A stretch of DNA of 4,914 bases, from IMG/VR virus record IMGVR_UViG_2734482547_000011; one strand, written 5' to 3'. The notes beneath the pieces were generated by a model that was not told the origin of the DNA, searched no databases, and was given only the letters and a program-made list of their open reading frames with translations. Numbering within the stretch: position 1 is the stretch's first letter; each line of letters starts with the position of its first letter. Made by a program: the position numbers and the translations under genes. The DNA comes from a virus. Its lineage: Duplodnaviria; Heunggongvirae; Uroviricota; Caudoviricetes. Positions 3,545 through 4,830 of the stretch are shown piece by piece.

Positions 3545-3664
3545 AAGAAACGCTCCATCTTACTGCTGTCAGTTCGTTTATTACTGTATCTGCGCGGATT
3601 GCCGGGCTTCATGGGAGTGGAAAGCACCCGTGCACTTTCCTGGTCCACAGGCAGAAAATGTCCG

Positions 3665-3820
3665 TAGACTGGCCCCCTGAATCTCCAGACAACCAGTATC
3701 ACTTAAATAAGTGATAGTCTTAATACTAGTTTTTAGACTAGTCATTGGAGTACAGATGATTGATGTCTTAGGGCCGGAGAAACGCAGACGGCGTACCACA
3801 CAGGAAAAGATCGCAATTGT
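3665..3820 (+). mobile_element. IS2 left-end fragment (156 bp: terminal inverted repeat plus the first ~21 codons of insC), truncated
   Basis: Identical over 156 bp to the IS2 end at 4374-4529 (TAGACTGGCCCCCTGAATCTCCAGACAACC...), then diverges at 3821. Confidence 0.85.
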
Positions 3821-4143
3821 GTCAACGCCACGATGTTTGACCGTTATTTGCCATTTTCATGCCCGCTAAATACTTTCGTTACTGATGCTGTCCGCTTTCC
3901 ACCATTTCATCATCACTGATTGGCGTTGTGTTTTTGGTCAGCACTCCAGCTTTACGTTTCTCTTTTAACCGGTAACTCTCTCCTTTGATATTCAGCGTGG
4001 TTGAGTGATGTAGCAGCCGATCCAGGATCGCTGTTGCCAGTACGTGATCTCCGAACATTTCTCCCCAGTCTGCGAACCCTTTGTTTGACGTCAGTATGAT
4101 GCTCGCTTTTTCATATCGACGGTTCAGTAGCCGGAAGAACAGA
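3821..4143 (-). mobile_element. IS21-family element, 3' terminal part (terminus plus istB 3' end), running into the assembly gap
   Basis: Contains the IstB C-terminal coding sequence and about 58 bp of terminal sequence (plus-strand GTCAACGCCACGATGTTTGACCG...) abutting the truncated IS2 fragment. Confidence 0.6.
3879..4143 (-). CDS. istB: IstB-like ATP-binding transposition helper (IS21 family), C-terminal fragment; N-terminus lost in the gap
   Basis: Translation ...[51 protein letters not shown]... carries the LDRLLHH and NIKGESYR motifs I recall as typical of IstB C-termini. The 209-aa ORF in the track is a chimera across the N-run. Confidence 0.75.
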
Positions 4144-4373
4144 NNNNNNNNNNNNNNNNNNNNNNNNNNNNNNNNNNNNNNNNNNNNNNNNNNNNNNNNN
4201 NNNNNNNNNNNNNNNNNNNNNNNNNNNNNNNNNNNNNNNNNNNNNNNNNNNNNNNNNNNNNNNNNNNNNNNNNNNNNNNNNNNNNNNNNNNNNNNNNNNN
4301 NNNNNNNNNNNNNNNNNNNNNNNNNNNNNNNNNNNNNNNNNNNNNNNNNNNNNNNNNNNNNNNNNNNNNNNNN
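4144..4373. other. Assembly gap (230 N)
   Basis: Uninterrupted run of N; the flanking sequences are both IS-derived repeats. Confidence 0.99.
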
Positions 4374-4464
4374 TAGACTGGCCCCCTGAATCTCCAGACA
4401 ACCAGTATCACTTAAATAAGTGATAGTCTTAATACTAGTTTTTAGACTAGTCATTGGAGTACAG

Positions 4465-4830
4465 ATGATTGATGTCTTAGGGCCGGAGAAACGCAGACGG
4501 CGTACCACACAGGAAAAGATCGCAATTGTTCAGCAGAGCTTTGAACCGGGGATGACGGTCTCCCTCGTTGCCCGGCAACATGGTGTAGCAGCCAGCCAGT
4601 TATTTCTCTGGCGTAAGCAATACCAGGAAGGAAGTCTTACTGCTGTCGCCGCCGGAGAACAGGTTGTTCCTGCCTCTGAACTTGCTGCCGCCATGAAGCA
4701 GATTAAAGAACTCCAGCGCCTGCTCGGCAAGAAAACGATGGAAAATGAACTCCTCAAAGAAGCCGTTGAATATGGACGGGCAAAAAAGTGGATAGCGCAC
4801 GCGCCCTTATTGCCCGGGGATGGGGAGTAA
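4465..4830 (+). CDS. insC: IS2 transposase OrfA (InsC), 121 aa
   Basis: Translation [56 protein letters not shown]... matches recalled IS2 InsC. True start is the ATG at 4465, not the upstream ATG at 4420 used in the ORF track. Confidence 0.9.
4782..4788 (+). promoter_or_regulatory. Programmed -1 ribosomal frameshift site A_AAA_AAG (IS2 OrfA to OrfAB)
   Basis: The heptamer A AAA AAG is in the insC zero frame, and the -1 frame continues open as [42 protein letters not shown] (InsD N-terminus). Confidence 0.8.

Follow-up and report, generated by a model that had tools for sequence, protein, structure and literature searches.

The window analysed here is a stretch of 4,914 nt catalogued as viral DNA (Caudoviricetes; IMG/VR record IMGVR_UViG_2734482547_000011). 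Its reverse complement is identical, N run included, to the public record CWYJ01000209.1 (L015; assembly GCA_001245685.1, 4914 bp), and the window is therefore one whole draft-assembly scaffold. The first 72 bases match, at 100%, the DNA just past the gene for a 385-aa IS3-family transposase in L006 and L010, and in finished genomes an IS600-like element with ORFs of 100 and 272 aa adjoins the DUF1737 gene (26-214, minus strand). Because these left 72 bases are an IS600-like terminus, the scaffold ends within insertion sequences at both sides. Between the two IS elements lie about 3.6 kb of phage DNA with a DUF1737 gene, iraM, a DUF3927 gene, tRNA-Arg, tRNA-Met, Q, rusA, and a gene for an 85-aa protein. 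The features that bear on the insertion sequences are collected in Table 1.

Table 1. Features of the window around the helicase remnant and the insertion sequences
Feature	Position	Strand	Basis or remark
IS600-like IS3-family element, terminal fragment	1..72	+	left scaffold end; 100% match
85-aa phage gene, upstream of rusA and Q	3287..3544	-	ORF list
Helicase gene 3' remnant, 40 codons and stop	3541..3664	-	translation match to the L006 helicase
GTCCG, left copy of the 5-bp IS2 target-site duplication	3660..3664	.	flank comparison with finished genomes
IS2 nt 1-156: IRL and first 22 orfA codons	3665..3820	+	colinear in seven finished genomes
IS21 right end: IRR TGTCAACGCCA, untranslated stretch, last 87 codons of istB	3820..4143	-	alignment to L002
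Scaffold gap, 230 N	4144..4373	.	in the public record; replaces 1741 bp of IS21 in finished genomes
IS2 nt 1-202, start of second contig	4374..4575	+	without counterpart here in finished genomes
IS2 nt 203-541	4576..4914	+	equals the continuation of the split IS2 past IS21; scaffold end
IS2 orfA, 121 aa, as written in the second contig	4465..4830	+	HTH_Tnp_1, E=1.8e-19; 121-aa gene call in L015

A repeat search of the window returned an exact direct repeat of 156 nt (3665-3820 and 4374-4529), which corresponds to IS2 nt 1-156 both times; a chance origin is ruled out for an exact repeat of this length. DNA matching the repeat is named “IS3-like element IS2 family transposase” by PGAP. The window contains a single run of N, and the base directly after it is nt 1 of IS2. 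An initial annotation, made from the letters alone, had described the first 156 bp of IS2 as occurring twice in the same orientation, the first copy as abutting the terminus of an IS21-family element on the opposite strand, and the body of that element as vanishing into the gap, with an IS2 left end immediately after it. Each of these descriptions agrees with our alignments. Upstream of orfA, the IS2 left end also carries a 20-nt near-perfect palindrome, TATCACTTAAATAAGTGATA (3697-3716 and 4406-4425), which the repeat finder listed as an inverted repeat between both IS2 copies.

The repeated element can be identified as IS2 by its ends, its genes, and its target site. It matches DNA annotated as IS2 at 98-100%. 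The left inverted repeat (TAGACTGGCCCC...) begins at both 3665 and 4374, and in the finished genomes the right inverted repeat (...GGGGCAAATCCA) falls at the predicted nt 1331. The 121-aa orfA product carries HTH_Tnp_1 and is followed by an overlapping orfB, which in the finished genomes encodes 301 aa with HTH_21, rve, and rve_3 domains; orfA itself is interrupted in the real locus in those genomes. The target-site duplication is the 5-bp GTCCG. The left end TAGACTGGCCCCCTGAATCTCC, the sizes of the two reading frames, the length of 1331 nt, and the 5-bp duplication are those of IS2 of the IS3 family, as known from E. coli K-12 and Shigella. The copy at this locus differs in that IS21 interrupts it at nt 156 and that its nt 157-202 are missing; both of its ends are kept.

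The second element is IS21. Window positions 3820-4143 are identical at 322 of 324 positions to a complete 2130-bp IS21 on plasmid pE200139_112 (L002), starting from its first base: at 3820, the first IS2 copy runs into TGTCAACGCCACG..., and the T at that position is common to the IS2 fragment and the IS21 end. The istB codons (3879-4142, minus strand) match Pfam IstB_IS21 (E=3e-28), and PGAP names the product IS21 family IstB. In the finished genomes, istA and istB are intact and encode an IstA of 390 aa (rve, Mu-transpos_C_2) and an IstB of 265 aa. The IS21 family is characterized by an operon of istA (transposase) and istB (AAA+ helper ATPase), by terminal inverted repeats beginning 5'-TG, and by a short target duplication of 4 bp. 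The complete plasmid copy has inverted repeats TGTCAACGCCA and TGTCAGCGCCA, ends in ...TTAAGGAAACAACATGTTGGG...GGCGCTGACA, and is flanked on both sides by the 4-bp duplication CTGT. At our locus, the right end is present at 3820, and the left end is deleted in the finished genomes; the 4-bp duplication is unreadable there, as the left junction has been deleted. The element resembles IS21 in its identity of about 99.5% to the 2130-bp copy, its gene pair, and its right end, and departs from it in the finished genomes by the loss of the left-terminal 58 bp at this locus; the window itself holds 324 bp only. The plasmid offers a separate example of such nesting, since L002 4001-7352 is an independent, complete IS21 inside an IS2; it entered that IS2 near nt 873, has the same relative orientation, and keeps its CTGT duplication intact.

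The gene in which IS2 landed can be named as well. The frame ending at 3541 translates as GHFLPVDQESARVLSTPMKPGNPRRYSNKRTDSSKMERFF followed by a stop, and its 40 residues match, without a difference, the C-terminal end of the DnaB-like helicase of L006 (463 aa); the matching gene in L001 is annotated by PGAP as “replicative DNA helicase.” The frame ending at 3581, which had been put forward earlier as a possible remnant of the interrupted gene, is not that remnant. An 85-aa protein identical to that of the window is encoded directly downstream of the helicase gene in intact prophages, and it had no Pfam or NCBIfam family above cut-off. Within our collection, this protein is confined to contigs shorter than 5 kb in 2143 of the 2758 blocks carrying it, a distribution consistent with an island whose IS borders keep short-read contigs from extending.

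Looking up the 85-aa protein led us to seven finished chromosomes of 4.79-4.96 Mb (L003, L004, L005, L007, L008, L009, and L012). Window positions 1-4143 align to all seven as one colinear block at 99.93-100% identity, with L012 at 100%. In one finished relative, CP151301.1, the locus lies at 2517803-2538060. Past position 4143, the finished genomes go on for another 1741 bp in IS21. Where its truncated left side ends, they match window 4576-4914, IS2 from nt 203 on, at 99.7-100% identity. Four junctions recur in all seven chromosomes. With the helicase-IS2 left junction set at 0, IS2 nt 156 meets the IS21 right end at +163, the truncated IS21 meets IS2 nt 203 at +2226, and the IS2 right end returns to the helicase gene at +3352; the only exception in spacing is this last junction in L003, at +3351 (1 bp). 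IS2 and IS21 are both multicopy repeats, and chimeric joins between such repeats are possible in principle, so the junction between IS2 nt 156 and IS21 might be taken as a misassembly that leaves the post-gap IS2 as the only real one. The identical junction, GCAATTGTGTCAACGCCACG, stands at the same distance from the helicase-IS2 junction in the seven finished chromosomes, however, and we give this reading next to no credence.

The finished chromosomes also bring the far side of IS2 into view. IS2 runs to nt 1331, after which come GTCCG and then the helicase gene again. On the left, AAAATGTCCG runs into TAGACTGG...; on the right, ...GGCAAATCCA runs into GTCCGTTATAAAA; the uninterrupted helicase gene of L006 reads AAAATGTCCGTTATAAAA. 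GTCCG stands on both sides of IS2 in all seven genomes and is single in the uninterrupted phage; only its left copy lies inside the window. A single IRL, a single IRR, and a single GTCCG duplication bound the whole IS2-IS21 composite, which measures 3349 bp between the GTCCG copies. The segment lengths sum to this observed value: IS2 nt 1-156 (156 bp), the truncated IS21 (2072 bp), and IS2 nt 203-1331 (1129 bp), minus the T shared at 3820 (1 bp) and the shared CAACATG (7 bp).

A single GTCCG duplication around one 1331-nt IS2 means that there is one IS2 at the locus, with IS21 inside it. As the finished chromosomes lay it out, the locus evidently holds one IS2, split by one IS21. We also considered two independent IS2 copies, each with its own ends and target duplication, and rejected them, as the finished genomes carry one set only. 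The initial annotation had left a choice between an IS21-family element inserted into an IS2 next to a second IS2 and a scaffold that joins repeat-ended contigs incorrectly, and parts of both stand. The insertion of IS21 into IS2 is borne out by its junction in the seven chromosomes, and the scaffold join is indeed misleading. The second IS2 alongside falls away in the finished genomes, where the same IS2 resumes at nt 203 past IS21 and closes with the matching GTCCG.

One further event at the locus is invisible from the window and had escaped the initial annotation. In the finished genomes, the left junction between IS21 and IS2 reads TTAAGGAAACAACATG running into GTGTAGCAG. Missing from it are the left-terminal 58 bp of IS21, including its IRL, and IS2 nt 157-202. 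The heptamer CAACATG at the deletion junction belongs to IS21 and also forms IS2 nt 203-209, and its presence in both parents is the signature of a microhomology deletion.

Measured against this arrangement, the scaffold misstates the interval behind the gap. From window base 4143 to IS2 nt 203, the finished genomes have 1741 bp and the scaffold has 432 bp, made up of the 230 N and IS2 nt 1-202. If the isolate shares the finished layout, the gap understates the distance by about 1.3 kb, and the scaffold would be right in the order and orientation of its contigs and wrong in content and distance. Since the finished genomes lack nt 157-202 at this locus and have nt 1-156 there only once, the second contig (541 bp) is best read as a consensus of many genomic IS2 copies, cut at the repeat boundary and attached by the scaffolder. 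The apparent second IS2 end is then most likely an artefact of short-read scaffolding.

The competing possibility is that this isolate acquired an extra, recent IS2 in istB, about 554 bp from the IS21 right end, so that the locus truly contains one full IS2 besides the truncated IS2 and the truncated IS21. The scaffold would then be essentially correct and would record three levels of nesting (IS2 in IS21 in IS2), a structure that no finished relative has. The deposited scaffold does read this way, and IS2 is active and variable among Shigella isolates (PMC7373316). None of the seven finished genomes carries an extra IS2 in an otherwise 99.93-100% identical locus, however, and the N run contributes no sequence evidence of an istB-IS2 junction. 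The post-gap contig starts exactly at IS2 nt 1 without a single flanking base, as expected of a repeat contig cut at its boundary, and the 4.9-kb scaffold ends inside IS sequence on both sides. We therefore regard the extra copy as unlikely. An even slighter possibility is that the N run masks 230 real bases of finished sequence, with flanks that are truly 230 bp apart. Masked stretches are said to occur in some collections. The public record has the same N run, however, and its partial istB gene call starts directly past it, which places the N run in the record itself rather than in a later mask; moreover, a step of 231 nt past window position 4143 leads to a base within istB in the finished genomes, rather than to an IS2 end. 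This reading we consider highly implausible.

In comparison, the account of one split IS2 with a duplicate end made by the scaffold, drawn from the finished relatives, is in our judgment very probably correct as a whole. It predicts that TTAAGGAAACAACATGGTGTAGCAG and GGGGCAAATCCAGTCCGTTATAAAAACG should be found in the reads of the isolate.

We propose the following history for the locus. An IS2 first inserted into the DnaB-like helicase gene of a lambdoid prophage, 121 bp before the stop codon, generating the 5-bp GTCCG duplication. This IS2 was then entered near nt 156 by an IS21 of opposite orientation, which cut orfA. A deletion between the two CAACATG heptamers next removed the left 58 bp of IS21, with its IRL, and IS2 nt 157-202. 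The outcome is an IS21 without one end, which should be immobile, and an IS2 with no intact orfA, which should be unable to supply OrfA or to encode OrfAB. Further IS-mediated loss would have brought the prophage down to its present size. The first three of these steps and the layout of the remnant can be read directly from the finished genomes. That this isolate has the same structure across its gap is an extrapolation from those strains, and insertion sequences are the presumed cause of the last loss.

The assembly would have followed from this structure. The first contig stops 324 bp into IS21, and the second would be the consensus IS2 nt 1-541, with the two joined across an estimated gap of 230 N. 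The contig breaks are probably explained by copy number, as a short-read assembler could not cross IS2 and IS21 because both are multicopy in the host organism. SSPACE and GapFiller are described by their users as greedy, with false joins possible and N gaps inserted (PMC5320598). The present scaffold shares with the collapsed-repeat contigs and greedy joins of that report (Page et al. 2016) a contig start at a repeat boundary, an estimated N gap, and a repeat-ended scaffold. Ordinary IS2 copies would, however, yield read pairs that put the gap below zero, against the estimated +230. Separately, 12 contigs in the collection start at the istB codon found at the gap edge (e.g. L013, L014, and L016-L018, from unrelated assemblies); the look-up that produced them selects for contigs breaking at that codon, and they carry no inference on a recurrent IS21 breakpoint.

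The prophage around the composite is a small remnant. The initial annotation had called it probably defective, a claim that holds and was, if anything, understated. In the finished genomes, the helicase gene past IS2 extends for only 42 bp before another IS begins, and with IS elements on both flanks, the prophage is reduced to about 3.6 kb. The intact relatives L006, L010, and L011 continue with replication genes on one side and with lysis, terminase, and portal genes on the other.

The distribution of the arrangement gives some indication of its host. Neither the whole 3287-4143 stretch nor the 161-bp IS2-IS21 junction had a contiguous match among 5426 complete E. coli genomes, and every E. 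coli record with at least 80% coverage in that set matched as two separate pieces, so the arrangement is not in genomes labelled E. coli. The helicase-IS2 junction likewise returned no match across the GTDB species representatives. In the finished genomes that carry the locus, ipaH (LRR_TTSS and NEL domains) lies 6-8 kb away. IS21 is listed for S. sonnei 53G and not for S. flexneri 301 or S. dysenteriae Sd197 (PMC7373316). The 53G genome has 331 IS, including 23 copies of IS2, with IS21 also present (S1 table of the same study), and nine IS21 insertions were inferred for the S. sonnei ancestor (S6 table); this repeat background supports the reading of the second contig as an IS2 consensus. From the nearby ipaH and the listing of IS21 by species, the host is most likely Shigella, probably S. 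sonnei.

The arrangement itself is already known, as it is present in public complete genomes, and it consists of textbook IS2 and IS21 elements in a decayed prophage. It illustrates routine genome decay: IS2 disrupts a prophage helicase, IS21 disrupts IS2, and a microhomology deletion disables IS21. Compared with the IS-within-IS nests and IS-bounded prophage remnants of Shigella (Hawkey et al. 2020, PMC7373316), which also involve IS2, IS21, and IS600-like elements, we see no substantive difference. That study reports IS-within-IS sites in Shigella reference genomes and notes that short-read IS mapping cannot see them; in short-read data, sites of this kind are hidden or broken. The value of the case lies in the caution it provides, namely that in an IS-rich genome, such as that of Shigella, scaffolding of short reads can leave an IS end in duplicate and a gap far below its true length at a place where one IS splits another. 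A finished reference or long reads are needed when IS are counted, “nested IS” called, or prophage integrity judged from scaffolds of this kind.

The phage genes of the remnant have some features of their own. The cargo gene at 460-795 (plus strand) encodes the anti-adapter IraM in 111 aa, with a score of 162 bits for NCBIfam NF007393 (cut-off, 121). The same product is listed as PF11183 PmrD in precomputed tables, but the current Pfam scan has no hit for it. The Q antiterminator (2062-2916, minus strand) has two Antiterm stretches and a CxxCxGxG zinc-finger-like segment below the Pfam cut-off, and it is 284 aa long here and in the Shigella genomes versus 273 aa in intact E. coli prophages. 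A 705-bp segment (1122-1826) is absent from the otherwise approximately 99% identical intact E. coli prophages L006, L010, and L011. It contains most of the DUF3927 ORF, an uncalled 117-aa ORF (1243-1596, minus strand), and tRNA-Arg(TCT); L006 keeps tRNA-Met(CAT) only. The segment is bounded by an 8-bp direct repeat, CAACAACC, at 1114-1121 and 1819-1826, which suggests that the three intact prophages may have lost it by microhomology deletion.
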